A DNA stretch of 39,313 bases from a virus. Within the stretch, counting starts at the first letter, position 1; each line of letters opens with the position of its first letter. Shown in pieces: positions 590 through 36,498 of this stretch. The position numbers and the translations under genes were made by a program. The DNA is taken from UHGV virus genome UHGV-0145328; one strand, 5' to 3'. The notes under the pieces are model-generated. The model did not search any database. It was given only the letters and a program-made list of their open reading frames with translations, and was not told the DNA's origin.

Positions 590-616
590 ATAAATTTCAG
601 GCAACAAAAAACCCAT
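590..616. repeat. attL core (27-bp direct repeat ATAAATTTCAGGCAACAAAAAACCCAT)
   Basis: Identical 27-mer recurs at 36472..36498; it lies just after the rcdA stop and next to the integrase gene. Confidence 0.85.
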
Positions 617-634
617 TTATGTAAACGGGTTAAT

Positions 635-672
635 GAAAACAATAAGTTAGGTTAAAAACAATAAGTTAGGTT
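635..672. repeat. Tandem 19-bp direct repeat (G/AAAAACAATAAGTTAGGTT x2); candidate integrase arm-type binding sites
   Basis: Two adjacent copies identical at 18 of 19 positions, between the attL core and the int 3' end. Confidence 0.45.
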
Positions 673-690
673 GGTGGTCAGTGGTGGTTA

Positions 691-1743
691 TTACGGGGTA
701 ATGCCAACCGCTGCCGCCACTTTGTCGCCACTTGGCAGCGTTGCCAGAGGATTGAAACGGAGCGCCGTTTCTAGATGATCCGGTGCCAGATGTGCGTAAC
801 GCATAGTCATTTTTATATCGTGGTGTCCGAGAATTTTTTGTAAGGCCAGAATGTTTCCACCCGACATCATGAAGTGCGCCGCAAACGTATGGCGCAGAAC
901 GTGTGTGAGTTGACCGCGAGGGAGCACGATAGACGTTTTTTCCATCACGGATAAAAATTGAAAATAGCAGTCTGTGAAGAAATTGAACCCATCAAGCGCC
1001 ATGATCTCTTCGTAAAGCTCTTTACTGATAGGGATGCTTCTGTTTTTCTTCCCCTTCGTTCTGACAAAGGTAATTCGGTATTTGGTCACCTGTGAGCGGG
1101 TAAGATTTACGGCTTCACGCCAGCGTGCGCCTGTGCTTAAGCATATCTTAACTACCAGTGCCAGAATTGGGTCCTGACGTTTGCAATCAGCCAGCAATTC
1201 AACAATCTGCTCATGGGTAAGCCATGCCATCTCTTTTTCTGCGATGGTGAATTTTCGCATGTTCTCCAGTGGGTTCGGATACGACCATTCGCCCAGACGG
1301 GATAGTTCGCTAAAAACACTACTTAGATAGCTTTGCTCCAGGTTAATGGTGACCGGGCTTGCTCCTTTCTTCCATTTCTCGCTGAAGTAGATCTCGCCTG
1401 TCAGGCGTTTATCTCGATAGTGGGCAAACATTTTAGAGGTGAGATCGGTTGCAAGAGGATTGCCCAGAGCGTCAACCATCAACAGCAATTTGTCATAGAC
1501 ATGCTGCCCAGCTGTCAGAGATTTACCATGTAGTTTGAACCATAGCTCAACCACGTCTTTCAGTGTTCGACGATCCACTGATTCACCCAGCCAGGGCTTT
1601 GCTTCGGTTTCTTCCATCGTGTGGCGCTCAAAAGCCAGTGCTTCGCCTTTGGTGGCGAATTGTTTACGCACACGACGCCCACTTCGTCCGGCGGGGTAAC
1701 ATTCGCAAAGCCATTTCCCTGTGGTTAGTTTTCGTACTGCCAT
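691..1743 (-). CDS. int: Tyrosine integrase (P2 Int family)
   Basis: 350 aa; C-terminal catalytic region with HxxR and a terminal Tyr (…LRHTFAAHFMMSGGNILALQKILGHHDIKMTMRYAHLAPDH…); adjacent to attL. Confidence 0.9.
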   Translation of the reverse strand: MAVRKLTTGKWLCECYPAGRSGRRVRKQFATKGEALAFERHTMEETEAKPWLGESVDRRTLKDVVELWFKLHGKSLTAGQHVYDKLLLMVDALGNPLATDLTSKMFAHYRDKRLTGEIYFSEKWKKGASPVTINLEQSYLSSVFSELSRLGEWSYPNPLENMRKFTIAEKEMAWLTHEQIVELLADCKRQDPILALVVKICLSTGARWREAVNLTRSQVTKYRITFVRTKGKKNRSIPISKELYEEIMALDGFNFFTDCYFQFLSVMEKTSIVLPRGQLTHVLRHTFAAHFMMSGGNILALQKILGHHDIKMTMRYAHLAPDHLETALRFNPLATLPSGDKVAAAVGITP

Positions 1744-1825
1744 AAAAAGCCCTCATATCAGAGGGCTAAATTTAACTGTATATGTAACCAGTAATCAATG
1801 TGTGATTACTATGAAACATACATTG

Positions 1826-3502
1826 CTAAGCAACATGTAGTTCATCGTTGGCGGAAGTGGCTGCTTTGCGCTCCTGCTCAATAGCTAGAGACTCTCTATA
1901 TTCTTTCGCCTCTGCAAACATTGTCCAGTGGGCGTTGATGTTCATGTCTTCAATAACTGATTTGATTTCTTTTAAATTTACGTTAAAAAACTCTTTTCGT
2001 GAGTTAATTTTATTGACCTGCTTTTCGTTGAAAACTTTATGCAGATGGTTTTCTAATGATGGTGCATCATCACTATAAATCATCGCATGAACATCGAACG
2101 AAAAAGGAACACTAGCATCTCCGAGTTCACGAACACGATCAAGTGGTTCAAGGCGGCGTGTCATTCCAATTTTATATACATCTTCGCCAAATGAACCAAT
2201 ATTACTAATGATATAGACGTGGCCTGATCTGGTTTGTTGAGCCATAGAAATAGCTCGTTGATTTTTAGCTTCAGCTTCTTCATATTTTAACTGTAGTTCA
2301 GCTATTTTTTGCTCTAAAGCTAAGCGTTGTTCTTCATTTGCAAGCATAAGTTCTTTCGTTGCTTTATTTATAGCTTGCTGAATAGCTTTTTCTTCTTTTT
2401 CAGCTTCTTTTATCGCTTTTTCATATTCTCTACGAGCTCTTTCCTCTTCACGAAGCTGTTCTTTAATCCTTCTTTGCTCTTCTTTTTCTTCGAGCATAAT
2501 TTCATTAACTGCTACACCCCATTTTAGCTCGTTGAGTCTTGCCTGAAGATAGATGTCACTTATTTTTGCGGACCTAAAGGCAGAGCCATTGTAATTTACT
2601 AGTTGAAATGCATCTTTTATTTCTTGGGAAAGTTTTCCAAAATTGTTGTGTTTGACTTTTGATAAAATACTGTCAACTCTTCCATTGAAGGCATCCAAAA
2701 CAAAGTTTATGGCAGTATTACGCCTGTTTTGCTCAACATAATCACACGAAGCAGCTTTATTAGTTTTTATTAATGATTTGGTTAACTCTCTGGCTTTTTG
2801 TAATTCCTTGCCTGCATCTGTAAATTCATAATTTTCTGCCAGCTCATCAAGTACACTACGGTTAGGGATGATCCATTCATCACCATAACCTTCAATTTTA
2901 TTTTTCATTGATTTTGCAACTGCTTCATATTTTTCTGCAAACTCTTTAGCTTCATATGCTGAACCAGCAATCTCCTTTGCTCTTTCTTCTGCATCAGAAA
3001 TAATTTTTACTGCATTGTCATTAGCATTTGAGATTAGCTCATTTGCTTTATTATTAGCATTATCAAGACGTTCTTTGGCTTTCAGGCGTGCATCGCGAGC
3101 GTCTTTGGTGATTGCTATAGCTTCGCTATTAGCGTTGCTTATTGTCATCTGAGCTTGATAATTTGCTTCGTTTACTGTTTTAGCCGCCTTAATTTGGGCT
3201 TCATCTATTTTTTGCTTGGCTATTGAGTCCGCATTTTTTATCTTATTCTCTGCATCCATTACTGCGCTGTGCAATTCTTCGTATTGCCACAATGGTGCTG
3301 CTCGCCCTTCAAGCTCTGATAATTCTCGTACGGTCTGTGCTAGTTTTTCTTGATTTTCAATCAGTTGGTTAGAAAGGGCTATGTTGTTAGCTGTCAGGTT
3401 ATCTATAGCCGCTTTGTGTTTTTTACTTTGTTTAAATAATATTACAGCTAGAACAGGGGCGAGAAATGCTAATAAGAGTATAACGATGGCAAATGAATTC
3501 AT
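1826..3502 (-). CDS. Membrane-anchored coiled-coil protein with DUF4041-like region and C-terminal T5orf172 (GIY-YIG-like) domain; cargo gene
   Basis: N-terminal hydrophobic helix (SFAIVILLLAFLAPVLAVILF); long K/E/A-rich heptad regions; C-terminal block GHVYIISNIGSFGEDVYKIGMTRRLEPLDRVRELG...VPFSFDVHAMIYSDD typical of T5orf172; visibly AT-rich; co-oriented with cI and int. Confidence 0.7.
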   Translation of the reverse strand: MNSFAIVILLLAFLAPVLAVILFKQSKKHKAAIDNLTANNIALSNQLIENQEKLAQTVRELSELEGRAAPLWQYEELHSAVMDAENKIKNADSIAKQKIDEAQIKAAKTVNEANYQAQMTISNANSEAIAITKDARDARLKAKERLDNANNKANELISNANDNAVKIISDAEERAKEIAGSAYEAKEFAEKYEAVAKSMKNKIEGYGDEWIIPNRSVLDELAENYEFTDAGKELQKARELTKSLIKTNKAASCDYVEQNRRNTAINFVLDAFNGRVDSILSKVKHNNFGKLSQEIKDAFQLVNYNGSAFRSAKISDIYLQARLNELKWGVAVNEIMLEEKEEQRRIKEQLREEERARREYEKAIKEAEKEEKAIQQAINKATKELMLANEEQRLALEQKIAELQLKYEEAEAKNQRAISMAQQTRSGHVYIISNIGSFGEDVYKIGMTRRLEPLDRVRELGDASVPFSFDVHAMIYSDDAPSLENHLHKVFNEKQVNKINSRKEFFNVNLKEIKSVIEDMNINAHWTMFAEAKEYRESLAIEQERKAATSANDELHVA

Positions 3503-3522
3503 TTTAAAATCCTTTTACTATA

Positions 3523-4119
3523 TTAATTCGAGACTATTGTACTTCTTATACAAGCAACCACTTCAATATCAGAAAATGCACATTCAAAGCTATTCTCTGC
3601 TGTTGTAATTTTAATCATTCCTTTAGGAAGCCTTGTGATTTTTCGAATGGAATAGGTTCCGTCGATATTGATTAACCAGTTTCCATCAAGTACTTCAGAA
3701 AATTTTTGATCACAAATGTATGTGACGAGTCCATCCTGAACAACAATTGGTGATGAAAGGTTTGCAGGAAGAAATGATGAATCGAAGACATATGAACCGT
3801 CTTCAATCATTTTGCCTGCGGCAAGGCGAAACTTAACAAGCTCTTCTGTAGCTGCTGTCAGCGAGCTTTGCTTAAGGCCTTGTCCGGTAGTTAACCATTT
3901 GAGGGAGGTTCCTGTTTCAAGAGCACATTGGATTATCCAGTCAGCAGGAAATGTATCCCGCAAATACCTGTTCGCTAGTGTGCTTTTTGATACTTCCAAG
4001 TGATCAGCTAAAGCCTGTCGTGTCGTAAAGCCATAGGCTTCGACTAATCGCTCAATCGCAGCCTTACCACCTTTATTGGGATTTATTTTGATCTCACTTG
4101 GGTACTTTGATGTTGACAT
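3523..4119 (-). CDS. cI: Immunity repressor CI (186-type)
   Basis: 198 aa with N-terminal HTH-like region, divergent from apl/cII; position between int and apl matches the 186 lysogeny module. Confidence 0.75.
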   Translation of the reverse strand: MSTSKYPSEIKINPNKGGKAAIERLVEAYGFTTRQALADHLEVSKSTLANRYLRDTFPADWIIQCALETGTSLKWLTTGQGLKQSSLTAATEELVKFRLAAGKMIEDGSYVFDSSFLPANLSSPIVVQDGLVTYICDQKFSEVLDGNWLINIDGTYSIRKITRLPKGMIKITTAENSFECAFSDIEVVACIRSTIVSN

Positions 4120-4140
4120 ATCTCTTTTGCGATCCTAGTA
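4112..4140 (+). promoter_or_regulatory. Candidate lytic promoter pR (TTGACA-17 bp-TAGTAT)
   Basis: Consensus -35 TTGACA at 4112..4117 and -10 TAGTAT at 4135..4140 with 17-bp spacer, upstream of apl. Confidence 0.55.
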
Positions 4141-4148
4141 TCAGTTTT

Positions 4149-4164
4149 GTACCCAATTGGGTAC
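4149..4164. promoter_or_regulatory. Perfect 16-bp palindrome GTACCCAATTGGGTAC; candidate repressor operator
   Basis: Perfect inverted repeat just downstream of the putative pR -10; a half-site-like TTGGGTAC also occurs at 4098..4105. Confidence 0.5.
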
Positions 4165-4215
4165 TTGTCACGATTACTACAGGCTCACCACAAGCCAATA
4201 GGAGATGTTGCATCA

Positions 4216-4436
4216 TGACCACTAACATTTCAATAACTCTGAATACGCCACACGTCACAATCGAGCGTTATAGCGAACTTACTGGTCTTTCAATCGACAC
4301 AATCAACGATATGTTGGCGGATGGTCGCATTCCTCGGCATCGTCTTCGTAAAGACAAGAAAAGAGAAAAGGTAATGATCAACCTTGCTGCTCTTACCGTT
4401 GATGCACTTACTGATTGCAATGTTGTATTCAACTAG
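4216..4436 (+). CDS. apl: Excisionase / transcriptional regulator Apl (Cox-like)
   Basis: 73 aa from the ATG at 4216 with upstream AGGAG; small basic protein first in the rightward operon; the longer ORF from 4098 is probably an over-extension. Confidence 0.7.
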
Positions 4437-4468
4437 TTCCATTTTGGGATACATCAGAGGTGTCGACC

Positions 4469-4978
4469 ATGTTTGATTACCAAGTTTCCAAACATCCACA
4501 TTTTGATGAAGCCTGTCGTGCATTCGCACTGCGCCACAATCTGGTGCAACTGGCAGAACGTGCGGGCATGAATGTGCAGATTCTGCGGAACAAGCTGAAC
4601 CCAGCTCAACCTCATTTATTAACCGCACCAGAAATCTGGCTGCTTACCGATCTGACTGAAGATTCAACGTTGGTAGATGGTTTTCTGGCACAGATTCATT
4701 GTCTGCCATGTGTACCGATTAATGAGGTAGCAAAAGAGAAACTGCCGCATTACGTCATGAGCGCAACTGCAGAGATCGGGCGTGTTGCAGCAGGTGCGGT
4801 ATCTGGTGATGTAAAAACTAGTGCCGGTCGTCGTGATGCTATCAGCAGCATTAACTCTGTAACACGACTGATGGCGCTGGCTGCTGTTTCATTGCAAGCC
4901 CGTTTACAGGCTAATCCTGCGATGGCGAGTGCAGTTGATACCATGACTGGCCTTGGTGCTTCATTCGGTTTGCTGTGA
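4469..4978 (+). CDS. cII: CII lysogeny-establishment activator (186 CII-like)
   Basis: 169 aa from [37 protein letters not shown]…; closely resembles 186 CII as I recall it. Confidence 0.8.
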
Positions 4979-4985
4979 GGTGTTT

Positions 4986-5282
4986 ATGCTGACGAAAGAA
5001 CCATCATTTGCATCGCTGCTGGTAAAACAAAGCCCGGCAATGCACTACGGTCACGGCTGGATCACGGGTGAGGATGGAAAACGCTGGCATCCATGTCATT
5101 CACAAGATGAATTGCTGTCTGAATTGACCACGAGGAAACGGAGAAAGTCCAAATGTATGCGGCAGAAAGTGAAGTGGTTTATCAGTTTCGTTACAGAGGG
5201 GAGAGTTATTCAGTACCTGAAGATGATTTGCTCTGTTGCTATCCGTCATTGTCGGGCGATGGCAGTTACTTTTTCACGTTAA
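4986..5282 (+). CDS. Early-region hypothetical protein (fil/dhr region); 3' portion uncertain
   Basis: ATG at 4986 (MLTKEPSFASLLVKQ…); C-terminal third is Cys/Arg-rich and overlaps the next ORF in another frame. Confidence 0.4.
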   Translation: MLTKEPSFASLLVKQSPAMHYGHGWITGEDGKRWHPCHSQDELLSELTTRKRRKSKCMRQKVKWFISFVTEGRVIQYLKMICSVAIRHCRAMAVTFSR

Positions 5283-5377
5283 AGGATGGGACGTTTTTAC
5301 GGGGAGAGCAGGTTAAAGAGACGATACGAAAAAATGTATCTCCTCTTGAGCGTTACCGTAAGAACAAAGAACGATAG
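5153..5377 (+). CDS. Early-region hypothetical protein
   Basis: 74 aa with a GGAG RBS about 10 bp upstream; plausible composition. Confidence 0.55.
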   Translation: MYAAESEVVYQFRYRGESYSVPEDDLLCCYPSLSGDGSYFFTLKDGTFLRGEQVKETIRKNVSPLERYRKNKER

Positions 5378-5399
5378 CTGCGTTTGGGGGATATGAAGT

Positions 5400-5741
5400 A
5401 TGGCAATTAATGGCGCTGCAGCAACTGTTCCATTAAGCCCCGGTGAACGCCTGAATGGACTTAATCACATTGCGGAGTTAAGGGCGAAAGTTTTTGGCCT
5501 GAATATTGAGTCAGAGCTTGAGCGGTTTATTAAAGATATGCGTGATCCACGGGATATCAATAATGAACAAAATAAACGGGCACTGGCTGCCATATTCTTT
5601 ATGGCAAAAATTCCAGCTGAACGTCATAGCATCAGCATTAATGAGCTGACCACTGACGAAAAGCGGGAGCTGATTAAAGCAATGAATCATTTTCGTGCAG
5701 TGGTGAGCTTATTTCCCAGACGGCTAACCATGCCGAATTAA
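5400..5741 (+). CDS. Early-region hypothetical protein
   Basis: 113-aa ORF in the early operon; no motif recognised. Confidence 0.55.
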   Translation: MAINGAAATVPLSPGERLNGLNHIAELRAKVFGLNIESELERFIKDMRDPRDINNEQNKRALAAIFFMAKIPAERHSISINELTTDEKRELIKAMNHFRAVVSLFPRRLTMPN

Positions 5742-5808
5742 CCAACTAATGAAATTAATGGCGTAAACCCGCCGGGCATCCCTTTATCTAAATTCAGGAG
5801 AATTGATT

Positions 5809-6042
5809 ATGCGTAATATTGAAACCCTCACGACTAAAACCGGACCGGATGACGCAGGGCTTAATATTTTACTGACAGAGGCTCGTCTGGAAGAACGCCG
5901 GGCAAGGGCTGAAGCAATGGCTGCTCGCCTTGATAGCCTGGCGTGTCATATCTCATCCCGCCAGCTAAACCACGTGGAAGCGGCAGAACTGCTGCGCGTG
6001 ACTGCTGAAGCAATCCAGAACGAAGCGCAGGAGATCCACTAA
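5809..6042 (+). CDS. Early-region hypothetical protein
   Basis: ATG at 5809 preceded by AGGAGAA; the ORF track used an upstream TTG. Confidence 0.55.
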   Translation: MRNIETLTTKTGPDDAGLNILLTEARLEERRARAEAMAARLDSLACHISSRQLNHVEAAELLRVTAEAIQNEAQEIH

Positions 6043-6269
6043 TGGCTGATGCAATGGATCTCGTACAGCAGCGCGTTGAAGAAGAACGCCAGCGCCATAT
6101 CCGTGCAGCCCGTGCCAAATCACCGGGCGTGTCACGCGTACTTTGCATTGAATGTGAAGCGCCAATTCCGCCAGCACGACGCCGCGCCATTCCGGGAGTG
6201 CAGCTTTGCATTACCTGTCAGGAAATCGCAGAGCTGAAAGGCAAACATTACAACGGAGGTGCTGTATGA
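6042..6269 (+). CDS. TraR/DksA-family C4 zinc-finger protein
   Basis: 75 aa with CIECEAPIP…CITCQ four-Cys motif, typical of phage TraR-like proteins. Confidence 0.7.
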   Translation: MADAMDLVQQRVEEERQRHIRAARAKSPGVSRVLCIECEAPIPPARRRAIPGVQLCITCQEIAELKGKHYNGGAV

Positions 6270-7123
6270 GCACCATCCTGAAATGGGCGGGAAATAAAAC
6301 CGCCATTATGCCAGAACTGAAAAAATACCTTCCTGCTGGCCCGCGACTGGTTGAACCTTTCGCGGGTTCCTGTGCTGTGATGATGGAAACGGATTATCCC
6401 AGCTATCTGGTTGCGGATATTAATCCTGATTTAATCAACCTCTATAAAAAGGTTGCCGCTGATTGTGAATCGTTTATATCTCGCGCCAGAGTTTTATTTG
6501 AGATCGCAAACAGGGAGGTGGCTTATTACAACATAAGGCAGGAGTTTAACTGCTCAACTGAAATTACTGATTTCATGAAAGCGGTATATTTCCTGTATCT
6601 CAATCGTCACGGTTACCGTGGTTTATGTCGCTATAACAAGAGCGGGCATTTCAACATTCCCTACGGTAATTATAAAAATCCGTATTTCCCTGAAAAAGAA
6701 CTTCGCACATTTGCAGAAAAAGCCCAGCGAGCAACGTTTATCTGCGCCAGCTTTGATGAAACGCTGGCGATGTTGAAGGCGGGAGATGTGGTGTATTGCG
6801 ATCCGCCATATGACGGTACGTTTTCCGGCTATCACACTGATGGTTTCACTGAAGATGACCAGTATCACCTGGCATCCGTTCTTGAACATCGGTCATCAGA
6901 AGGACATCCGGTCATTGTTTCTAACAGTGACACATCCCTGATCCGTTCGCTGTATCGCAATTTTACTCACCACTATATCAAGGTAAAACGCAGCATCGGT
7001 GTGGCAGCTGGCGAGGGTAAATCAGCAACAGAAATCATTGCTGTTTCCGGGCCGCGCTGCTGGATGGGATTTGATTATTCGCGTGGCGTGGATAGTTCTG
7101 CCGTGTACGGAGTACGTGCATGA
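6266..7123 (+). CDS. dam: DNA adenine methyltransferase (Dam-like, GATC type)
   Basis: [11 protein letters not shown]… N-terminus, FAGSCAV AdoMet-binding motif and DPPY catalytic motif; start overlaps the stop of the preceding gene. Confidence 0.85.
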
Positions 7124-9534
7124 GTCATGCCGATATGAACAACTGCTGCGGCTTTAACGAGGCTGCCGCAGCATTCTCATGGAACAGCCCGAAAAAGGCC
7201 ATTAACCCTTATCTGGACCCGGCGGAAGTTGCGCCGGTTTCTACGCTTTCAAACCTGATCACTCTGTACGCTGCCGATAACGAGCAGGAACAACTGCGCC
7301 GCGAGGCACTGAGTGATCAGGTCTGGGAGCGTTATTTCTTTAATGAATCACGTGATCCTGTCCAGCGCGAAATGGAGCAGGATAAGCTCATTAGCCGGGC
7401 AAAGCTGGCGCATGAGCAGCAGCGTTTTAATTCAGACATGGTCATTCTGGCGGACGTCAACGCCCAGCCTTCCCATATCAGCAAGCCGCTGATGCAACGT
7501 ATTGAATACTTCAGCAGCCTGGGCAGGCCAAAGGCTTATTCCCGCTATTTACGTGAGACGATTAAGCCATGTCTGGAACGACTGGAGCATGTACGCGACA
7601 GTCAGCTATCTGCATCTTTTCGCTTTATGGCAAGCAATGAAGGGCTGGACGGCCTGCTGATCCTGCCTGAAATGAGTCAGGATCAGGTGAAACGCCTGTC
7701 CACCCTGGTAGCTGCGCATATGAGTATGTGCCTTGATGCAGCTTGTGGTGATTTGTATGCCACCGATGACGTTAAGCCAGAAGAAATCCGCAAGACATGG
7801 GAAAAGGTGGCAGCGGAAACCCTGCGTCTGGATGTCATCCCACCTGCGTTTGAGCAACTCCGTCGGAAAAGAAACCGCCGTAAACCCGTGCCCTATGAAC
7901 TCATTCCGGGTTCGCTGGCGCGTATGTTGTGCGCCGACTGGTGGTATCGGAAATTATGGAAGATGCGTTGCGAATGGCGGGAAGAGCAGTTGCGCGCTGT
8001 TTGCCTGGTCAGCAAAAAAGCATCTCCTTATGTCAGCTATGAAGCCGTGATGCATAAACGTGAGCAGCGCCGTAAGTCGCTGGAGTTTTTCCGTTCTCAT
8101 GAACTGGTGAACGAAGACGGCGACACGCTGGACATGGAGGATGTGGTAAACGCCAGCAGCAGCAACCCTGCGCATCGCCGCAATGAGATGATGGCCTGTG
8201 TTAAAGGTCTGGAGCTTATCGCGGAAATGCGCGGTGACTGCGCCGTTTTCTACACTATCACCTGTCCGTCGCGTTTCCATTCCACGCTAAATAACGGCAG
8301 ACCAAACCCGACCTGGACAAACGCGACGGTAAGACAAAGCAGCGATTATCTGGTCGGCATGTTTGCTGCATTTCGTAAGGCGATGCACAAAGCCGGGTTG
8401 CGCTGGTATGGCGTGCGGGTGGCTGAGCCGCATCATGATGGCACAGTTCACTGGCACCTGTTGTGTTTCATGCGCAAAAAAGACCGCCGTGCCATCACTG
8501 CATTACTGCGTAAGTTTGCCATCCGTGAAGACCGCGAGGAGCTGGGCAATAACACTGGGCCGCGCTTTAAGTCTGAGTTGATTAACCCGCGCAAAGGAAC
8601 GCCGACAAGCTACATCGCGAAATATATCAGTAAGAACATTGACGGTCGTGGTCTGGCTGGCGAGATCAGCAAGGAAACGGGTAAATCTCTGCGTGATAAC
8701 GCTGAATACGTGAATGCCTGGGCGTCTCTGCATCGTGTTCAGCAATTCCGCTTCTTTGGTATTCCGGGGCGTCAGGCTTACCGTGAACTTCGCTTGCTGG
8801 CTGGTCAGGCGGCAAGGCAACAGGGTGACAAAAAAGCAGGTGCGCCGGTACTGGATAACCCGCGTCTTGATGCCATTCTGGCTGCTGCTGATGCTGGTTG
8901 TTTTGCCACCTACATCATGAAGCAGGGCGGCGTACTGGTTCCCCGTAAATATCACCTCATCAGAACCGCTTATGAAATCAACGAAGAGCCGACCGCCTAT
9001 GGCGATCACGGCATTCGTATTTATGGCATCTGGTCACCCATTGCAGAGGGCAAGATCTGCACTCATGCAGTGAAGTGGAAAATGGTTCGTAAAGCCGTTG
9101 ACGTTCAGGAGGCGGCAGCCGACCAGGGCGCTTGCGCCCCTTGGACTCGTGGCAATAACTGTCCCCTTGCTGAAAATTTGAACCAACAAGGGAAAGACAA
9201 ATCAGCTGATGGAGATACCAGAACGGATATCACCCGCATGGATGACAAGGAGTTGCACGATTACCTGCACAGTATGAGCAAAAAAGAGCGCCGGGAACTG
9301 GCTGCAAGGTTACGCCTGGTGAAACCGAAACGGCGTAAAGACTACAAACAGCGAATTACAGACCATCAGCGACAGCAGCTCGTCTATGAACTGAAGTCCA
9401 GAGGATTTAATGGCAGCGAGAAAGAGGTCGATTTACTCCTTCGCGGCGGCAGTATTCCGTCAGGAGCAGGCCTGCGTATCTTCTATCGGAACCAGCGTTT
9501 GCAGGAAGATGATAAGTGGCGAAACCTGTATTAA
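7120..9534 (+). CDS. A: Replication initiation protein A (rolling-circle HUH endonuclease, P2 gpA-like)
   Basis: 804 aa containing [11 protein letters not shown] (HUH motif); position after the early genes. Confidence 0.85.
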
Positions 9535-9644: not shown

Positions 9645-9687
9645 TGGTTATGTATACAGTATTGCTTGTGGTGTCATAGGAGGAAAG

Positions 9688-27728: not shown

Positions 27729-28119
27729 GCCATTCAATATCTGGAGCACTGGAGGTATCAACCAGTTCCAGTGCGTCCAGATAATCCAGCCACAAATTAT
27801 ATTGCGCCAGTTCCTCACCTTTCAGACGACCAATAGCCGCTTTACCAGGCCATTGCCTGCTGTTCATGTGCTCGTTGGCTTCATTAATAAGTTTTCCTTT
27901 TTTCAACTCTGCCAATGCAATAAGGTTTTCTTTTGATAAAGGTGGTTGCTCTGTCAAAACCGGATATCCCTCCTGATTGCTGACTATTTTCATGCCATTA
28001 TCCTGACCATCCAGTAGTGACAGCCATTCATCCGTGGTTATCTCAACAGCATCTGAAGGTGCTTTATTTAAATCGGTAAAAAAACCATTTTCTTTTTGTG
28101 AATAGAAGTATCTGTCCAT
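27700..28119 (-). CDS. Alternative tail fibre assembly chaperone (inverted orientation)
   Basis: 139 aa ending …DTSSAPDIEWPTPPA, same C-terminal motif as G, on the opposite strand. Confidence 0.75.
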   Translation of the reverse strand: MDRYFYSQKENGFFTDLNKAPSDAVEITTDEWLSLLDGQDNGMKIVSNQEGYPVLTEQPPLSKENLIALAELKKGKLINEANEHMNSRQWPGKAAIGRLKGEELAQYNLWLDYLDALELVDTSSAPDIEWPTPPAVQAR

Positions 28120-28524: not shown

Positions 28525-28551
28525 CCCCGGTTTTTATTCAGGGGATTGATC

Positions 28552-29118
28552 ATGCTTATTGGCTATGTACGCGTGTCAACAAATGACCAGAACACCGATT
28601 TGCAACGTAATGCACTGAACTGCGCGGGATGTGAGCGGATTTTTGAGGACAAAATCAGTGGCACTAAGTCCGACAGACCGGGGCTTAAAAAACTGCTCAG
28701 GACACTATCGGCAGGTGACACACTGGTTGTCTGGAAGCTGGACAGGTTGGGGCGCAGTATGCGGCATCTTGTTACGCTGATAGAAGAGTTGCGCCAGCGC
28801 GGCGTGAATTTCCGAAGCCTGACTGACAGTATTGATACCAGTACCCCAATGGGCCGTTTCTTTTTTCATGTCATGGGTGCCCTGGCTGAAATGGAACGCG
28901 AACTGATAGTTGAACGTACCAGGGCAGGGCTGGCTGCAGCTCGTGCTAAAGGCAGAGTAGGTGGACGCCGTCCTAAGTTGACTACCGAACAGTGGGCACA
29001 GATTGGGCGTTTACTCGAGGCCGGAGAATCAAGACAGCGTATTGCACTGATTTTTGATGTAGGCGTTTCTACCATTTATAGAAAATTTCCGGCAAATAAG
29101 AGCAATGAATCTCCCTGA
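28552..29118 (+). CDS. Serine DNA invertase (Hin/Gin/Cin/Pin family)
   Basis: MLIGYVRVSTNDQNTDLQRNAL…TLVVWKLDRLGRS…GRFFFHVMGALAEMERELIVERT closely matches the Hin/Gin family; C-terminal HTH. Confidence 0.9.
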   Translation: MLIGYVRVSTNDQNTDLQRNALNCAGCERIFEDKISGTKSDRPGLKKLLRTLSAGDTLVVWKLDRLGRSMRHLVTLIEELRQRGVNFRSLTDSIDTSTPMGRFFFHVMGALAEMERELIVERTRAGLAAARAKGRVGGRRPKLTTEQWAQIGRLLEAGESRQRIALIFDVGVSTIYRKFPANKSNESP

Positions 29119-29260: not shown

Positions 29261-30433
29261 ATGGCTCAGGATTACCACCACGGGGTGCGCGTTGTTGAAG
29301 TCAACGAAGGCACCCGATCCATTACCACGGTGAGCACCGCCATCGTGGGTATGGTCTGCACGGGCGATGATGCCGATGCAAAAATGTTTCCTCTTAATAA
29401 ACCCGTGCTGATCACTGATGTGCTGACTGCCAGCGGTAAAGCGGGTGAGTCCGGTACGCTGGCCCGTTCGCTGGACGCCATCGCTGACCAGGCAAAACCC
29501 GTGACCGTTGTTGTGCGTGTGCCGCAGGGTGAAACGGAAGAAGAAACCACGACCAATATCATCGGAGCAGTGACCGCTGAAGGTAAAAAAACAGGCATGA
29601 AAGCCTTGTTATCTGCCCAGTCACAGCTTGGCGTTAAACCGCGCATTCTCGGCGTGCCAGGCCACGACACCAAGGCGGTAGCTACTGAGTTGCTGAGCGT
29701 GGCGCAAAGCCTGCGTGGATTTGCTTACCTGTCAGCGTATGGCTGCAAGACGGTACAGGAGGCGATCACTTACCGTGAAAACTTCAGCCAGCGCGAAGGG
29801 ATGCTGATCTGGCCTGACTTTACTGGCTGGGACACGGTGCTGAATGCCGAAGCAACGGCATATGCCACCGCCCGTGCGCTTGGTCTGCGCGCCAAAATTG
29901 ACGAGCAGACCGGATGGCACAAAAGCCTGTCCAACGTGGGCGTGAACGGTGTCACCGGAATTTCTGCTGATGTGTTCTGGGATCTGCAGGACACGGCAAC
30001 AGATGCGGGACTGCTGAACCAGAACGACGTCACCACCCTTATCCGCAAAGACGGTTTCCGCTTCTGGGGTTCCCGCTGCCTGAGTGATGACCCGCTCTTT
30101 GCCTTCGAAAACTACACCCGCACGGCGCAAGTACTTATGGACACAATGGCAGAAGCGCATATGTGGGCGGTGGACAAACCGCTGAACCCGTCGTTGGCCC
30201 GCGACATTATCGAAGGTATCCGCGCCAAAATGCGCAGCCTGGTCAGTCAGGGCTATCTCATTGGTGGTGATTGCTGGCTGGATGAGTCGGTGAACGACAA
30301 AGATACTCTGAAAGCCGGGAAGCTCACCATCGACTACGACTACACGCCAGTGCCGCCACTTGAAAATCTGATGCTGCGTCAGCGCATCACCGATCAGTAC
30401 CTGGTGAATTTCTCCAGCCAGGTCAGCGCGTAA
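29261..30433 (+). CDS. FI: Contractile tail sheath protein (P2 FI-like)
   Basis: 390 aa; synteny FI-FII-E-T-U-D. Confidence 0.85.
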
Positions 30434-30442: not shown

Positions 30443-30958
30443 ATGGCTTTACCACGCAAATTAAAACACCTGAACCTGTTTAACGACGGGAACAACTGGC
30501 AGGGGATCGTTGAGTCGCTGACGCTGCCGAAATTCACCCGCAAATATGAGAAGTATCGCGGCGGCGGAATGCCGGGGGCGGTGGATGTGGATCTGGGGCT
30601 TGATGACAGTGCTCTGGACACAGAATTTTCCATTGGTGGTACTGAGCTGCTGCTGTTTAAGCAGATGGGCAAAGCCACGGTGGATGGCATCCAGTTGCGC
30701 TTTACCGGCTCTATCCAGCGTGATGATACCGGGGAAGTGCAGGCCGTGGAGCTTGTGGTGCGTGGACGTCACAAAGAAGTGGATTCCGGCGAGTGGAAGA
30801 CGGGCGAAAGCAACACCACTAAAGTGACCAGTACCAACAGCTACGCGAAGCTGACTATCAATGGTGAGGTGCTCTATGAAGTGGACCTTATCAACATGGT
30901 GGAAATTGTGGACGGTGTGGACCTGATGGAAGCGCACCGCAACGCCCTCGGCCTCTGA
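30443..30958 (+). CDS. FII: Tail tube protein (P2 FII-like)
   Basis: 171 aa directly after the sheath gene. Confidence 0.85.
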   Translation: MALPRKLKHLNLFNDGNNWQGIVESLTLPKFTRKYEKYRGGGMPGAVDVDLGLDDSALDTEFSIGGTELLLFKQMGKATVDGIQLRFTGSIQRDDTGEVQAVELVVRGRHKEVDSGEWKTGESNTTKVTSTNSYAKLTINGEVLYEVDLINMVEIVDGVDLMEAHRNALGL

Positions 30959-31012: not shown

Positions 31013-31315
31013 ATGAGCGATAAGCAGACTGAAAAGACCATTCAACTGGATACCCCCATCATGCGTGGTAAAACTGAAATCACCGAAATTGTGCTGCGTA
31101 AACCGCAGTCCGGTGCGCTGCGCGGTACACGCCTGCAGGCCATTATGGATATGGATGTGAACGCGATGATGACCGTGATCCCCCGCATCTCCAGTCCGGC
31201 ACTGACTGCACAGGAAATTGCAGAGATGGACCCGGCAGATCTCACTGCCATGTCGGTTGAGGTTGTCACTTTTTTGTTGAAGAAGTCGGTGCTTGCCGGT
31301 TTACCGACAGCCTGA
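31013..31315 (+). CDS. E: Tail assembly chaperone E (P2 gpE-like)
   Basis: 100-aa ORF upstream of the tape measure gene containing a TTTTTTG slippery site. Confidence 0.8.
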   Translation: MSDKQTEKTIQLDTPIMRGKTEITEIVLRKPQSGALRGTRLQAIMDMDVNAMMTVIPRISSPALTAQEIAEMDPADLTAMSVEVVTFLLKKSVLAGLPTA

Positions 31316-31449
31316 CGGTTGACGATCTGGTGGCTGATATCGCCACCATCTTTCACTGGCCGCCATCCGTTACTGACGTTATGCCGCTGACCGAAGTGCT
31401 GGAATGGCGGTATAAAGCGATTCAGAGAAGCGGGGCCAACGATGAGTGA
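31013..31449 (+). CDS. Tail assembly chaperone E+E-prime (programmed -1 frameshift product)
   Basis: A -1 shift at TTTTTTG (31270..31276) continues in an open frame (…FFVEEVGACRFTDSLTVDDLVADIATIFHWPP…RSGANDE) ending at 31449, overlapping the T start. Confidence 0.65.
31270..31276 (+). other. Slippery heptamer TTTTTTG for the E/E-prime -1 frameshift
   Basis: T6G run inside E with a long open -1 frame downstream. Confidence 0.65.
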
Positions 31450-34400
31450 TAATAACCTGCGCCTGCAGGTCATTCTTAATGCGGTTGACAAACTCACCCG
31501 CCCATTCCGTGCTGCACAGGCCAGTTCGAAAGCGCTGGCTGGCGCAATTCAGAATACCCGAAACAGCCTCAAAGAACTGAATAAGCAGGTCGGCAGAATT
31601 GATGAATTTCGCAAGACGCGCTCGCAACTAGCCATAACAGCCAACAACCTGAACGCAGCCCGCGAAGAGGCGGCAAAACTCGCCACACAATTTGCTGCCA
31701 CTAACAGACCAACCGCCGCGCAGGCAAAGTTATTCAGTCAGGCCAAAACACGAGTACAGGAACTTCAGCAGACCTATAACGGCTTGTTGGGGGCGGTCCA
31801 GAGACAACGTCAGGCACTTAAAGAATCAGGGATTGACACCAGACAACTCAGTAGTGCCCAGCGAGAACTTAAGAAAAATGCTGAAGAAACAAGGCAGGCA
31901 CTGGAGGGCCAGCAAAAAGCACTTAAACGTCTGGGTGAACAACAGGCACGGATGAACGCTGCCAGAGAACAATACTCAAGACGGCTTGAAGTGCGCGATC
32001 GCATCGCAGGAGCCGGAGCCACTACCACGGCTGCAGGGCTGGCAATGGGTGCGCCAGTGATGGCGGCAGTAAAAAGCTATACCAGCATGGAAGATGCCAT
32101 GAAAGGTGTGGCAAAGCAGGTCAATGGTCTGCGTGACGATAATGGCAACCGCACTGCACGTTTTTATGAAATGCAGGATGCCATCAAGGCTGCCAGCGAA
32201 CAGTTGCCGATGGAAAACGGTGCGGTGGACTTCGCTGCACTGGTTGAAGGTGGTGCGCGCATGAACGTCGCAAACCCTGACGACAGCTGGGAAGACCAGA
32301 AACGTGACCTGCTGGCCTTCGCCAGTACGGCAGCAAAGGCAGCAACAGCCTTTGAGCTGCCAGCGGATGAACTGTCAGAAAGTCTGGGGAAAATCGCCCA
32401 GCTCTACAAAATACCTACCCGCAATATTGAACAGCTCGGCGATGCGCTGAACTATCTGGATGATAACGCCATGTCGAAAGGGGCGGACATCATTGATGTG
32501 ATGCAACGTCTGGGCGGTGTGGCTGACCGTCTGGATTATCGTAAAGCGGCGGCGCTGGGTTCCACCTTCCTGACACTGGGCGCTGCGCCGGAGGTTGCAG
32601 CCAGTGCAGCAAACGCGATGGTGCGTGAATTGTCCATTGCCACCATGCAAAGCAAGAGTTTCTTTGAAGGGATGAATCTGCTGAAACTCAATCCTGAAGT
32701 GATTGAAAAGCAGATGACGAAGGATGCGATGGGAACTATCCAGCGCGTACTGGAGAAGGTGAACGCACTGCCGCAGGATAAACGTCTGTCTGCCATGACC
32801 ATGTTGTTTGGTAAAGAGTTTGGCGATGACGCGGCGAAACTGGCAAACAACCTGCCGGAACTGCAGCGCCAGCTAAAGCTGACAGCGGGCAATGATGCGC
32901 TCGGCTCCATGCAGAAAGAATCCGACATTAACAAGGACTCACTTTCTGCGCAGTGGTTGCTGGTCAAAACCGGAGCGCAGAACACCTTCAGCAGCCTGGG
33001 CGAAACGCTGCGCCAGCCGCTGATGGATATTCTGTACACGGTGAAAAACATCACGGGGGCGTTGCGCCGCTGGGTGGAAGCTAACCCGGAACTGACAGGC
33101 ACACTGATGAAAGTAGCCGCTGTGGTGGCTGCGGTTACCGTAGGCCTCGGCACCTTAGCGGTGGCGCTGGCTGCAGTGCTGGGGCCGCTGGCAGTGATCC
33201 GTCTGGGATTCTCTGTGCTGGGTATCAAAACGTTACCTTCCGTTACGGCAGCAGTAACTCGAACCAGCAGCGCGTTGTCCTGGCTGGCTGGCGCACCACT
33301 GGCACTGCTGCGACGCGGGCTTGCTTCATCGGGCAACGCCGCAGGTTTACTTACTGCGCTGTTGTCGTCTTTGCGCCGCACGGCATCACTGACGGGAAAT
33401 GTCCTGAAAACTGTAGCAGGTGCGCCGGTTGCACTTTTGCGGTCTGGATTATCCGGTTTACGTGCTGTTGCTGTGATGTTTATGAATCCTTTGGCGGTAC
33501 TGCGCGGTGGACTGGTCGCCGCAGGCACGGTGCTGCGAGTACTGGCATCTGGTCCACTGGCGATGCTGCGCGTTGCCCTGTATGCCGTATCTGGTCTGTT
33601 AGGTGCTCTGCTCAGTCCGATAGGTCTTGTGGTTACTGCACTGGCGGGCGTGGCGCTGGTTGTCTGGAAATACTGGCAACCCATCACCGCATTTCTTGGT
33701 GGCGTGGTGGAAGGATTCAAAGCGGCGGCAGGTCCCGTCAGTGCAGCATTCGAACCGCTTAAGCCCGTGTTCCAGTGGATTGGCGACAAAGTACAGGCGC
33801 TGTGGGGCTGGTTTACTGATCTGCTGACGCCCGTTAAGTCGACCTCTGCCGAACTGCAGAGTGCAGCGGCAATGGGGCGGCGATTCGGAGAGGCACTGGC
33901 GGAAGGGCTGAATATGGTCATGCATCCGCTGGACTCCCTGAAATCCGGCGTTTCCTGGTTGCTGGAGAAACTTGGCATTGTCAGTAAAGAGGCCGCAAAG
34001 GCAAAACTGCCGGAAAGCGTGACGCGTCAGCAACCTACGACGGTGAATGCAGACGGTAAAGTGATGATGCCATCGGGTGGTTTTCCATCATGGGGATATG
34101 GCTTTGCGGGGATGTATGACAGCGGCGGGTATATCCCGCGCGGGCAGTTTGGCATCGTCGGTGAAAACGGGCCGGAAATTGTTAACGGCCCGGCAAATGT
34201 GACCAGCCGGAGAAATACCGCTGCACTGGCTGCCGTTGTTGCCGGAATGATGGGCGTTGCTGCCGCGCCTGCAGAGCTTCCACCGTTGCACCCTTTGGCA
34301 CTTCCCGCGAAAGGCGGCGAAGCGATGGTGAGTCGTGCAGCCACTGTGCCGCCCGTTCAACGGATTGAGGCACCGATGCAGATCATCATTCAGACGCAGC

Positions 34401-34519
34401 CAGGACAAAGTGCGCAGGATATTGCGCGGGAGGTAGCCCGCCAGCTTGATGAACGTGAACGCAGGCTGAAAGCAAAAGCCAGGAGTAACTACAGCGATCA
34501 GGGGGGATACGACGCATGA
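31442..34519 (+). CDS. T: Tail tape measure protein (P2 gpT-like)
   Basis: 1025 aa, coiled-coil N-terminal half and Ala/Gly/Leu-rich hydrophobic repeats. Confidence 0.85.
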   Translation: MSDNNLRLQVILNAVDKLTRPFRAAQASSKALAGAIQNTRNSLKELNKQVGRIDEFRKTRSQLAITANNLNAAREEAAKLATQFAATNRPTAAQAKLFSQAKTRVQELQQTYNGLLGAVQRQRQALKESGIDTRQLSSAQRELKKNAEETRQALEGQQKALKRLGEQQARMNAAREQYSRRLEVRDRIAGAGATTTAAGLAMGAPVMAAVKSYTSMEDAMKGVAKQVNGLRDDNGNRTARFYEMQDAIKAASEQLPMENGAVDFAALVEGGARMNVANPDDSWEDQKRDLLAFASTAAKAATAFELPADELSESLGKIAQLYKIPTRNIEQLGDALNYLDDNAMSKGADIIDVMQRLGGVADRLDYRKAAALGSTFLTLGAAPEVAASAANAMVRELSIATMQSKSFFEGMNLLKLNPEVIEKQMTKDAMGTIQRVLEKVNALPQDKRLSAMTMLFGKEFGDDAAKLANNLPELQRQLKLTAGNDALGSMQKESDINKDSLSAQWLLVKTGAQNTFSSLGETLRQPLMDILYTVKNITGALRRWVEANPELTGTLMKVAAVVAAVTVGLGTLAVALAAVLGPLAVIRLGFSVLGIKTLPSVTAAVTRTSSALSWLAGAPLALLRRGLASSGNAAGLLTALLSSLRRTASLTGNVLKTVAGAPVALLRSGLSGLRAVAVMFMNPLAVLRGGLVAAGTVLRVLASGPLAMLRVALYAVSGLLGALLSPIGLVVTALAGVALVVWKYWQPITAFLGGVVEGFKAAAGPVSAAFEPLKPVFQWIGDKVQALWGWFTDLLTPVKSTSAELQSAAAMGRRFGEALAEGLNMVMHPLDSLKSGVSWLLEKLGIVSKEAAKAKLPESVTRQQPTTVNADGKVMMPSGGFPSWGYGFAGMYDSGGYIPRGQFGIVGENGPEIVNGPANVTSRRNTAALAAVVAGMMGVAAAPAELPPLHPLALPAKGGEAMVSRAATVPPVQRIEAPMQIIIQTQPGQSAQDIAREVARQLDERERRLKAKARSNYSDQGGYDA

Positions 34520-35001
34520 TGATGGTGCTGGGATTGTACGTGTTTATGCTGCGCACCGTGCCGTATCAGGAGCTGCAGTATCAACGCAGTTGGCGACATG
34601 CGGCAAACAGCCGGGTAAACCGACGTCCGTCCACGCAGTTTCTGGGACCGGACAACGACATGCTGACGCTTTCCGGTGTTCTTATGCCGGAGATAACAGG
34701 TGGCAGGCTGTCGTTGCTGGCACTGGAGCAGATGGCAGAACAGGGGAAAGCATGGCCCCTGATTGAAGGCAGCGGCACGATTTATGGCATGTATGTGATT
34801 GAGGGACTGAATCAGACTAAAACGGAGTTTTTCCGCGACGGTATGCCGCGCCGGATTGAGTTCACCCTGTCGCTCAAACGGGTGGATGAATCCCTGTCCG
34901 ATATGTTCGGTGATCTCAGTGCGCAACTGAATAATCTGCAGGAAACGGCAACGTCTGCCTTAAGCGATATCAGTAAAACGGTGGGAGGGCTGCTGTCGTG
35001 A
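34516..35001 (+). CDS. U: Tail protein U (P2 gpU-like)
   Basis: 161 aa; synteny. Confidence 0.8.
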   Translation: MMMVLGLYVFMLRTVPYQELQYQRSWRHAANSRVNRRPSTQFLGPDNDMLTLSGVLMPEITGGRLSLLALEQMAEQGKAWPLIEGSGTIYGMYVIEGLNQTKTEFFRDGMPRRIEFTLSLKRVDESLSDMFGDLSAQLNNLQETATSALSDISKTVGGLLS

Positions 35002-36098
35002 ATTTCAGCTCTGAACTGCTTAACAAAGGCAACAAAACTCCCGCATTCAGCATCAGTATTGAGGGCAGGGATATCACCACTGTGCTGGATAACCGCCTGA
35101 TGAGTTTGACGCTGACGGATAACCGGGGCTTTGAAGCGGACCAGCTTGATCTGGAGCTGGATGACGCTGACGGAAAAATCGTGCTGCCGCGCCGTGGTGC
35201 GGTCATTACGCTGGCGCTGGGCTGGAAGGGGCAGCCGCTTTTCCCTAAAGGGGCATTCACAGTGGACGAGATTGAACACACTGGCGCACCGGACCGCCTG
35301 ACTATCCGGGCGCGAAGTGCTGATTTTCGGGAAACGCTGAATACCCGCCGTGAAAAATCGTGGCATAAGACCACCGTCGGGGAAGTGGTGAAGGAAATAG
35401 CCGCGCGGCACAAGCTGAAGATGGCACTGGGTAAAGACCTGTCGGATAAGCCCGTGGAGCATATAGACCAGACTAATGAGAGTGACGGCAGTTTTCTGAT
35501 GCGGCTGGCGAGACAGTACGGTGCCATCGCGTCGGTGAAAAATGGCAATCTGTTATTCATCCGGCAGGGGCAGAGCAAAAGCGCCAGCGGTAAACCACTA
35601 CCGGTTATCACTATCACACGCAAGGACGGCGACAGTCACCGCTTTACCCTGGCAGATCGCGGAGCCTACACGGGCGTAATTGCCAGCTGGTTGCATACCC
35701 GCGAACCCGAGAAGAAAGAAAGCACCACGGTGAAGCGTAAGCGCAGGACTAAGAAGCAGAAGAAAGAGCCGGAAGCGAAGCAGGGCGATTACCTGGTGGG
35801 TACGGATGAAAACGTGCTGGTACTTAATCGCACTTATGCCAACCGGAGCAACGCCGAACGAGCGGCGAAAATGCAGTGGGAACGCCTGCAACGCGGCGTT
35901 GCGTCATTCTCGCTACAACTGGCAGAAGGTCGGGCAGATCTCTACACGGAAATGCCTGTGAAGGTCAGTGGCTTTAAACAGCCGATAGATGATGCGGAAT
36001 GGACCATTACCACCCTGACGCATACTGTCAGCCCGGATAACGGTTTTACGACCAGTCTGGAGCTTGAAGTGAAGATTGATGATTTCGAAATTGAATGA
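34998..36098 (+). CDS. D: Tail protein D (P2 gpD-like)
   Basis: 366 aa; synteny before ogr. Confidence 0.8.
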   Translation: MNFSSELLNKGNKTPAFSISIEGRDITTVLDNRLMSLTLTDNRGFEADQLDLELDDADGKIVLPRRGAVITLALGWKGQPLFPKGAFTVDEIEHTGAPDRLTIRARSADFRETLNTRREKSWHKTTVGEVVKEIAARHKLKMALGKDLSDKPVEHIDQTNESDGSFLMRLARQYGAIASVKNGNLLFIRQGQSKSASGKPLPVITITRKDGDSHRFTLADRGAYTGVIASWLHTREPEKKESTTVKRKRRTKKQKKEPEAKQGDYLVGTDENVLVLNRTYANRSNAERAAKMQWERLQRGVASFSLQLAEGRADLYTEMPVKVSGFKQPIDDAEWTITTLTHTVSPDNGFTTSLELEVKIDDFEIE

Positions 36099-36188
36099 TT
36101 CTTCGCAATGGAGAACTTTTAAGTTTTCAAAATGGAATAATGCGGTATCATTATTGTGAATTTAGCAAAAATGGGGAGAACTCGAAAA

Positions 36189-36407
36189 ATGATGATTTGC
36201 CCACTGTGTGGAAGTGCCGCCCATACTCGCAGCAGTTTTCAGGTATCTTCATTGACCAAAGAGCGTTACAACCAGTGCCAGAACATTAACTGCAGCCATA
36301 CTTTTGTTACCCATGAAACTTTTGTTCGTTCGATTGCAACGCCAAAAGAGTCAAATCCGGTTCAGCCGCATCCAATGAAATCAGGACAGGTGGCGCTCTC
36401 TCTTTGA
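36189..36407 (+). CDS. ogr: Late-gene transcription activator Ogr (zinc-finger)
   Basis: 72 aa from MMICPLCGSAAHTRSS…CQNINCSHTF, a four-Cys zinc finger; last gene before attR as in P2. Confidence 0.85.
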   Translation: MMICPLCGSAAHTRSSFQVSSLTKERYNQCQNINCSHTFVTHETFVRSIATPKESNPVQPHPMKSGQVALSL

Positions 36408-36471
36408 CTCTGCCGCCAATTTGTCGCCATCGTTAAAAAACACTGCTTCTAACATCATGATTTTAAAAGGC

Positions 36472-36498
36472 ATAAATTTCAGGCAACAAAAAACCCAT
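36472..36498. repeat. attR core (27-bp direct repeat)
   Basis: Identical to 590..616. Confidence 0.85.

Follow-up and report, generated by a model that had tools for sequence, protein, structure and literature searches.

A P2-family prophage between rcdA and ybjL, very probably integrated into the 3′ end of the small RNA gene rybB

The 39,313-nt stretch of DNA analyzed here (the window; UHGV virus genome UHGV-0145328) has a host protein gene near each margin, rcdA on the left and ybjL on the right, with a 35.9-kb P2-family prophage between them (Table 1). The prophage is bracketed by a 27-mer, ATAAATTTCAGGCAACAAAAAACCCAT, of which a repeat search of the window returned exactly two exact copies, in direct orientation, the left one beginning 3 bp past the rcdA stop codon. 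A first-pass annotation of the sequence had described this much correctly: the repeat, its position relative to rcdA, and a P2-family element with the 27-mers as its ends. The interval proves to hold a complete P2-type gene set. The same annotation had also pointed out an inverted repeat at the right end, CCCATCAACC (36494-36503) and GGTTGATGGG (36521-36530), which overlaps the right copy of the 27-mer, extends just rightward of it, and does fold into a 12-bp stem. It is over the identity of this hairpin that the two accounts part.

The sole Rfam match in the whole window lies at this point. It is to the RybB small RNA (sRNA; RF00110), on the minus strand, covering model positions 1-79 of 79 with a score of 105.3 bits (gathering score 40); the same full-score match is present at the empty K-12 site. 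By the published RybB sequence, transcription presumably starts at 36566, and the predicted promoter just beyond, GAACTT and TCTTAA with 16 nt between them, agrees with the sigma-E type of promoter that rybB is known to have. On the minus strand the bases in question form a 12-bp stem (36492-36503 with 36521-36532), then UUUUUUGUU, with the U-run TTTTTTGTT (UUUUUU; 36487-36492) directly after the stem. On the plus strand, in the direction of rcdA, the stem is followed by CTCCACAAAATGG, without a T-run. With a full-length RybB on the minus strand and a T-run on that strand only, the right-end inverted repeat is the Rho-independent terminator of RybB, not that of rcdA.

The first-pass annotation had made the other choice: that the phage targets the 3′ flank of rcdA, and that the hairpin beside the right attachment site (attR) is the native rcdA terminator, regenerated on integration. 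In its favor are the closeness of the repeat to the rcdA stop and the stability of the plus-strand fold of the same bases (-26.8 kcal/mol), which makes some bidirectional pausing of rcdA transcription possible. But the hairpin is part of a full-length gene on the opposite strand, the plus strand offers CTCCACAAAATGG in place of a T-run, and after integration the hairpin stands 35.9 kb from rcdA, at attR, so that it is not restored to rcdA at all. In other genera, moreover, the phage arm is joined to host DNA that cannot be aligned with the Escherichia rcdA 3′ end, while the rybB tail is kept. Together these leave the rcdA alternative very improbable. What the attR copy of the repeat overlaps is the last 14 nt of rybB, made up of ATGGG from the 3′ half of the stem, then the U-run, then GUU, and this overlap points to integration into the 3′ end of rybB: the element regenerated is the rybB 3′ end at attR, and no rcdA terminator is rebuilt.

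Mistakes of this kind arise when only protein genes are considered. rcdA and ybjL are neighboring protein genes in K-12, as the first-pass annotation stated, but the rybB gene recognized by Rfam lies between them. The RefSeq annotation of the K-12 site has no rybB feature, nor do the PGAP tables of any E. coli record examined, although the Rfam match is at full score; from annotation alone, therefore, the two protein genes look directly adjacent. The corrected annotation has as its target an sRNA gene on the opposite strand.

Both empty and occupied versions of the site occur among E. coli genomes. An empty-site query (window 1-616 joined to 36499-37300, one 27-mer being kept) was searched in complete E. 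coli genomes and was found as one uninterrupted piece, with annotated rcdA and ybjL, in 4293 of 5426, K-12 included. Identity was 100% in strain PSUO2 and 97.9% in K-12 MG1655 derivatives, and among the other genomes listed the match was interrupted at query position 590/591. An occupancy query (window 300-1800, spanning rcdA, core and int) matched with at least 80% coverage in 1071 of the 5426, placing the integrase gene next to rcdA. About one-fifth of complete E. coli genomes thus carry this integrase here and about four-fifths are empty, so the insertion is strain-specific, as had been supposed. The expectation that K-12 would show an empty site with a single 27-mer is borne out as to the emptiness but not the sequence: its version, ATAAGTTTTAGATAACAAAAAACCCAT, agrees with the 27-mer at 23 of 27 bases, with four differences, and the exact 27-mer was not found in K-12 even with two mismatches allowed. 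Strains PSUO2, NGF1 and PA45B do share the full 27-bp identity block. In a scan of one genome per species, the core joined to the phage arm was found in 13 Enterobacteriaceae species of about 11 genera (among them Raoultella, Klebsiella michiganensis, Citrobacter, Enterobacter, Leclercia, Lelliottia, Buttiauxella, Scandinavium, Silvania, Dryocola and two Escherichia species), indicating that this type of integrase and phage attachment site (attP) is widespread in the family.

Klebsiella phage KP12 has, between its ogr and int genes, the whole of the attP predicted from the window (617-1000 placed after 36172-36498) as one contiguous 711-bp piece of 98.9% identity, with a single core that differs by 1 base. 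This also bears on the possibility that the 27-bp repeat arose by chance or as a target duplication of the transposition type, with no site-specific attachment core. Beyond the bare direct repeat nothing speaks for that idea, and it is refuted on several counts: the chance expectation for an exact 27-bp pair in 39 kb is about 4e-8, the empty sites hold one pre-existing copy, roughly one in five complete E. coli genomes has the integrase at the identical position beside rcdA, and KP12 has this same sequence at the junction of its attP. Its probability is negligible.

The exchange can be placed more finely than the repeat itself would allow. Compared with the phage copy, the K-12 host site (attB) is identical only in the 14 nt belonging to rybB. 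Two lysogens formed at K-12-like sites and differing in cargo, ATCC 8739 and strain 98193, were compared. In both, the left attachment site (attL) reads TTTTAGAT (in longer form ATAAATTTTAGAT) followed by AACAAAAAACCCAT, which is the host type, as in K-12; attR reads TTTCAGGC (in longer form (A/T)TAAATTTCAGGC) followed by AACAAAAAACCCAT, which is the phage type. A host-type attL together with a phage-type attR places the reciprocal exchange to the right of core position 13, inside the invariant AACAAAAAACCCAT. In an alignment across the 13 species, the host side is wholly divergent to the left of AA[C/T]AAAAAACCCAT, and the stretch common to all versions of attB, attP, attL and attR examined is no longer than the 14-nt rybB part. 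Natural polymorphism thus positions the crossover within the last ~14 nt of rybB. The repeat is exact, as first described, but as an attachment core its 27 bp are, on these comparisons, an upper bound: an identity block specific to certain host lineages, the present one among them, the functional common core being at most the rybB tail as far as the alignments indicate. A further suggestion is that phages of this lineage recombine at att only within the ~11-14 nt terminator tail of rybB, with attP mimicking a terminator half-site; this is tentative, and taken jointly with the proposal on cargo genes made below it has a little less than an even chance of being right.

The explanation that best accounts for these observations, and that is very probably correct, is that a P2-family prophage with a 186-type lysogeny switch has integrated by its own tyrosine integrase into the 3′ end of rybB, which is rebuilt at attR. 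In this model, the final ~14 nt of rybB would also be present in attP, namely the 3′ half-stem of the terminator, the U-run and a few bases beyond; in this host lineage the match extends to 27 bp, and strand exchange would take place inside the shared segment. At attR the 5′ part of the gene and its promoter, both from the host, would be joined to the shared 3′ end, leaving rybB intact. At attL the partner of the shared 3′ half-stem and U-run would be a 5′ half-stem from the phage, and the two would make up another hairpin terminator, so placed that the int transcript could end there. Integration leaves rcdA untouched, and accessory genes occupy dedicated slots between conserved modules (between int and cI, on either side of cos, and between S and V).

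No evidence contradicting integration into rybB was found, but four points limit this account. The RybB hairpin escaped a simple terminator scan, its 17-nt loop being longer than the 8 nt allowed there, and the Rfam match and folding were used to settle its identity; the same scan, with loops of at most 8 nt, returned no plus-strand terminator at attR either. The contiguous attP of KP12, a record described as a “partial sequence” clone, is good evidence but no formal proof of a free circle. Placement of the crossover within the last ~14 nt of rybB draws on two lysogens and on the cross-species junctions. Finally, the LexA-box pattern discussed below is not significant by itself, being reached in 38 of 100 shuffles; it is its position that counts.

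The proposed second terminator is found at attL, directly downstream of the int stop codon. Phage DNA (AACCCGTTTACATAA) pairs there with ATGGGTT of the core to form a 9-bp hairpin, followed on the minus strand by TTTTGTTGCC; the att core contains the 3′ half-stem and U-run of this hairpin, which is likely to be the int terminator, judging from its place and fold. attB and attR therefore bear the RybB terminator and attP and attL a putative phage terminator, the 3′ half-stem and U-run being common to both. The arms of attP contain repeats of two kinds. The tandem copies of AAAACAATAAGTTAGGTT in the int-proximal arm are candidate arm-binding sites for Int or Apl. The pattern CTGCCGCCA[C/A]TTTGTCGCCA occurs once in each arm (two matches, against 0.02 expected), and these copies are likewise candidate Int or Apl binding sites, of the Int arm type. 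The tandem repeat is partly conserved across the 13 species, its second unit, CAATAAGTTAG, being nearly invariant.

P2-like prophages in rybB are already known, from E. coli W, B and Crooks, from Klebsiella, and as a hotspot of the E. coli pan-genome. Archer et al. (2011; PMC3032704) identified the rybB ncRNA as the insertion site of the P2-type prophages Rybb*W, Rybb*B and Rybb*Cr in E. coli W, B and Crooks, Rybb*B carrying retron Ec86; Hudson et al. (2014; PMC4048246) described a Klebsiella prophage or island “precisely within” the RybB gene; and in the E. coli survey of Hochhauser et al. (2023; PMC10121019) the sole occupants of hotspot #29 are Felsduovirus prophages that lie within rybB, Felsduovirus being the name given to occupants of this site in the E. 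coli defense-island literature. More generally, sRNA genes are recognized phage targets, ryeE having been noted as one (Bobay et al., 2013). The Rybb* prophages of E. coli W, B (REL606/BL21) and Crooks (ATCC 8739), and those of hotspot #29, have the same rybB site, integrase and P2-type backbone as the present one and likewise carry varying defense genes at fixed positions; only the cargo differs, consisting here of a SNIPE homologue, a lipoprotein gene, a hipIN-like pair and a PDC-S59 AAA+ ATPase. What is noteworthy in this copy is accordingly the rare cargo, an experimentally unvalidated set of candidates, and the fine position of the crossover.

P2 itself, at locI, also uses a short core overlapping the 3′ end of an sRNA gene (cyaR/ryeE), and cyaR is listed beside rybB as a P2-type insertion site (PMC3032704). 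The present phage differs from P2 in its target gene, in its integrase (only 39% identical to P2 Int), and in having a 186-type set of CI, Apl, CII and Tum-like genes. P2 has a C/Cox switch and is not known to be SOS-inducible. Coliphage 186 has the same type of switch as the present phage, the likeness, as seen in domain and family matches, extending to CI with PF07022 and PF16452, an Apl-like excisionase, CII and Fil; a DinI-like, putatively Tum-like gene after the replication gene, with a LexA-box-like sequence ahead of it, would be a further point of likeness. 186 integrates into a tRNA gene.

The closest phage records are those of Klebsiella phages 4LV2017 and KP12 and Escherichia phage vB_EcoM-813R9, which cover 76-85% of the first 24 kb at a nucleotide identity of 96-98% (for 4LV2017, Peduoviridae and Elveevirus, 96.5% over 76%). 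All have the same att sequence, which at the start of the 4LV2017 record is annotated as an attL feature. They differ in being mostly Klebsiella-host records, in their cargo blocks and tail-fiber ends and, for KP12, in the single base of the core. The integrase is 99-100% identical across vB_EcoM-813R9 and the Klebsiella phage set (100% to vB_EcoM-813R9, whose record contains rcdA and ybjJ), and about 55% identical to other P2-like integrases.

Table 1. Features of the window, with coordinates in nt. ORF, open reading frame; aa, amino acids; PGAP, names given by that annotation in relatives.
Feature	Position	Strand	Basis or remark
rcdA (host, left flank)	50-586	+	Stop TAG 584-586; ORF and annotation in homologous loci
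attL copy of 27-bp identity block ATAAATTTCAGGCAACAAAAAACCCAT	590-616		Last 14 nt, 603-616, are the invariant part
Phage-supplied hairpin, AACCCGTTTACATAAATGGGTT then TTTTGTTGCC	610-631	-	Terminator scan; fold -9.2 kcal/mol
Two tandem copies of AAAACAATAAGTTAGGTT	636-672	+	Period 19; int-proximal arm
Tyrosine integrase (int)	691-1743	-	Domain search: Int_N and Phage_integrase
20-nt arm repeat CTGCCGCCACTTTGTCGCCA	711-730	+	Partner copy at 36410-36429
SNIPE/PD-lambda-1 homologue	1826-3502	-	Slot int-cI; PADLOC PD-Lambda-1, E 2.4e-120
186-type CI repressor	3523-4119	-	Phage_CI_repr (PF07022, E 8e-32) and Phage_CI_C (PF16452, E 3.5e-27); PGAP name
Early operon	4215-9534	+	Profile matches; PGAP names in relatives
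Apl/Cox-like excisionase-repressor	4215-4436	+	phrog_575
CII	4469-4978	+	phrog_101
Fil	4986-5282	+	
DUF5347	5400-5741	+	
DUF2732	5809-6042	+	
TraR/DksA	6042-6269	+	
Dam methylase	6266-7123	+	
Replication endonuclease A	7120-9534	+	
LexA-box-like CTGTAAATATAAACAG	9629-9644	+	CTGT-N8-ACAG; upstream of 62-aa ORF
62-aa ORF	9688-9876	+	
DinI-like, Tum-like 77-aa ORF	9887-10120	+	Matches only the C-terminal half of phrog_189
Predicted lipoprotein	10234-10911	+	Slot tum-cos; phrog_1353; signal peptide ending in lipobox LTGC
cos-like sequence GGCGTGGCGGGGATACGAG	11085-11103		Noted by eye
hipIN-like pair	11256-12907	+	Slot cos-Q, between cos-like site and portal gene Q
Small HipA-like kinase	11256-12170	+	PADLOC candidate PDC-M03A/B (with next)
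HipS-like + HIRAN protein	12167-12907	+	PADLOC candidate PDC-M03A/B (with preceding)
Head and lysis genes	12942-21695	both	ORFs, profile matches, PGAP relatives
Portal Q	12942-13982	-	
Terminase P	13979-15745	-	
Scaffold O	15888-16721	+	
P2-type major capsid N	16738-17796	+	
M	17800-18450	+	
L	18546-19010	+	
X	19010-19213	+	
Holin	19217-19432	+	
Lysozyme	19413-19925	+	
LysA-like	19927-20304	+	
LysB	20301-20729	+	
LysC	20614-20862	+	
R	20825-21256	+	
S	21249-21695	+	
429-aa AAA+ ATPase	21742-23031	-	Slot S-V; Walker A GESKCGKS; PADLOC candidate PDC-S59, E 1.9e-197
Baseplate V	23116-23694	+	
W	23691-24050	+	
J	24037-24945	+	
I	24938-25543	+	
Tail fiber H	25540-27126	+	
Tail-fiber assembly G	27123-27728	+	
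Putative invertible tail-fiber segment	26576-29118		27-nt inverted repeats 26576-26602 and 28470-28496
Alternative assembly gene	27700-28119	-	
Alternative fiber C-terminus	28123-28524	-	
Serine invertase	28546-29118	+	190 aa
Sheath FI	29261-30433	+	
Tube FII	30443-30958	+	
E	31013-31315	+	
E'	31330-31449	+	
Tape measure T	31442-34519	+	
U	34516-35001	+	
D	34998-36098	+	
Ogr zinc-finger activator	36189-36407	+	phrog_603
Second arm-repeat copy CTGCCGCCAATTTGTCGCCA	36410-36429	+	ogr-proximal arm
attR copy of 27-bp identity block	36472-36498		Final 14 nt of rybB at 36485-36498
rybB sRNA gene (host), intact	36485-36566	-	Rfam match 36485-36563
Predicted sigma-E-type promoter of rybB	36572-36599	-	Host side; prophage leaves it untouched
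ybjL (host, right flank)	36644-38329	-	ORF and annotation in homologous loci

By its gene content and nucleotide identities, the prophage is of the P2 family (Peduoviridae), with Klebsiella phage 4LV2017 (Elveevirus) as its nearest classified relative. The major capsid protein matches TIGR01551 (major_capsid_P2) with 330.6 bits against a cutoff of 219.7, the portal protein matches TIGR01540, and the tail proteins match TIGR01644 (V), TIGR01634 (I), TIGR01635 (S) and TIGR01611 (tube), with a further match for the tape measure. Q and P lie on the minus strand, divergent from O, N and M on the plus strand, which is the P2-type layout, and the baseplate and tail gene order (V W J I H G ... FI FII E T U D, with Ogr beside att) is that of the PGAP-annotated relatives. 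Outside four variable blocks the backbone is 96-99% identical to that of the PA45B prophage, also at the rybB site, and window 1-10118 is 99.5% identical to it.

Could this nevertheless be a defective, immobile remnant that has merely retained its att repeats? Decay does occur in the lineage, the related same-site prophage of PA45B having frameshifted tail-fiber genes. In the present copy all conserved P2-type genes are ORFs of full length that match their counterparts in relatives in size, both att copies are perfect, and int, apl, cI, a cos-like site and the invertible fiber segment are all present, which makes a remnant unlikely; the prophage looks intact, as far as its sequence allows a judgment. 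The cos-like sequence GGCGTGGCGGGGATACGAG, which seems to resemble the 186 cos end, falls within a block (10962-11109) conserved in relatives with differing flanks. The P2 cos consensus gave no match within three mismatches.

The region from the LexA-box-like sequence through the DinI-like ORF suggests a module for SOS induction via a Tum-like antirepressor, and the prophage may be SOS-inducible through this putatively LexA-controlled gene. The 62-aa ORF and the DinI-like ORF, side by side, may correspond to the 186 Tum module split in two or encoded by two genes.

Comparison of the lysogens PA45B, ATCC 8739, NGF1 and 98193 reveals fixed slots with changing content, at int-cI, tum-cos, cos-Q and S-V. 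In NGF1 the int-cI slot holds a KAP NTPase gene; 98193 has genes for two hypothetical proteins there, and ATCC 8739 a 63-aa ORF. The product of this slot in the present copy has an N-terminal transmembrane helix (N-terminus MNSFAIVILLLAFLAPVLAVILF), DUF4041, a T5orf172/GIY-YIG nuclease domain and a MUG113 match, a domain architecture that agrees with that of SNIPE, a family of membrane-anchored nucleases that cut siphovirus DNA during injection (PMC13190303). The lipoprotein of the tum-cos slot might be of the superinfection-exclusion type.

The gene organization of the pair in the cos-Q slot follows that of hipIN (Gerdes et al., 2021; PMC8262856). Its matches to PADLOC candidate PDC-M03A/B have E values of 2e-122 and 7e-93; in Pfam there is a HIRAN match (E 1e-13) as well as matches to HipA_C (E 3.6e-4) and Couple_hipA (E 0.014), both below the Pfam cutoffs. 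The block containing the lipoprotein gene, cos and the hipIN-like pair (9540-12940) was found in a single one of the 5426 complete E. coli genomes (EC361, 99% identity).

The S-V block is present in 4 of those genomes, and in ATCC 8739, NGF1 and 98193 unrelated genes occupy the slot. The AAA+ ATPase encoded there has no Pfam match above threshold, and searches of NCBIfam and of PDB sequences gave no matches for it, the kinase, the HIRAN protein or the lipoprotein. Its homologues extend, at 55-60% identity, to Paenibacillus, Vibrio and Bradyrhizobium, Firmicutes and Alphaproteobacteria included. In an AlphaFold model (mean predicted local distance difference test score 81), the best fold matches were to Cdc6/Orc1, RFC subunits and the archaeal AAA+ protein SSO1545, so that the predicted fold appears ORC/Cdc6/RFC-like.

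A literature search for PDC-S59 and PDC-M03 found no paper on either. The defense roles of the cargo are putative; the PDC-S59 ATPase and the hipIN-like pair could be functional anti-phage systems housed in dedicated prophage slots, a possibility that shares the slightly-below-even standing given above, jointly, to the confinement of att recombination to the terminator tail. The rare accessory genes of this copy are in any case candidates for screens of prophage-borne defense systems.

The tail-fiber region, with its alternative fiber end, alternative assembly gene, inverted repeats and serine invertase, has the features of a segment that would be invertible, and its layout is the same in ATCC 8739. 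The PA45B counterparts of the genes in this segment are frameshifted pseudogenes. The PA45B prophage, elsewhere 98-99% identical, gives no alignment over a block of about 370 bp in the tape-measure gene (31615-31984), which forms a local mosaic patch.

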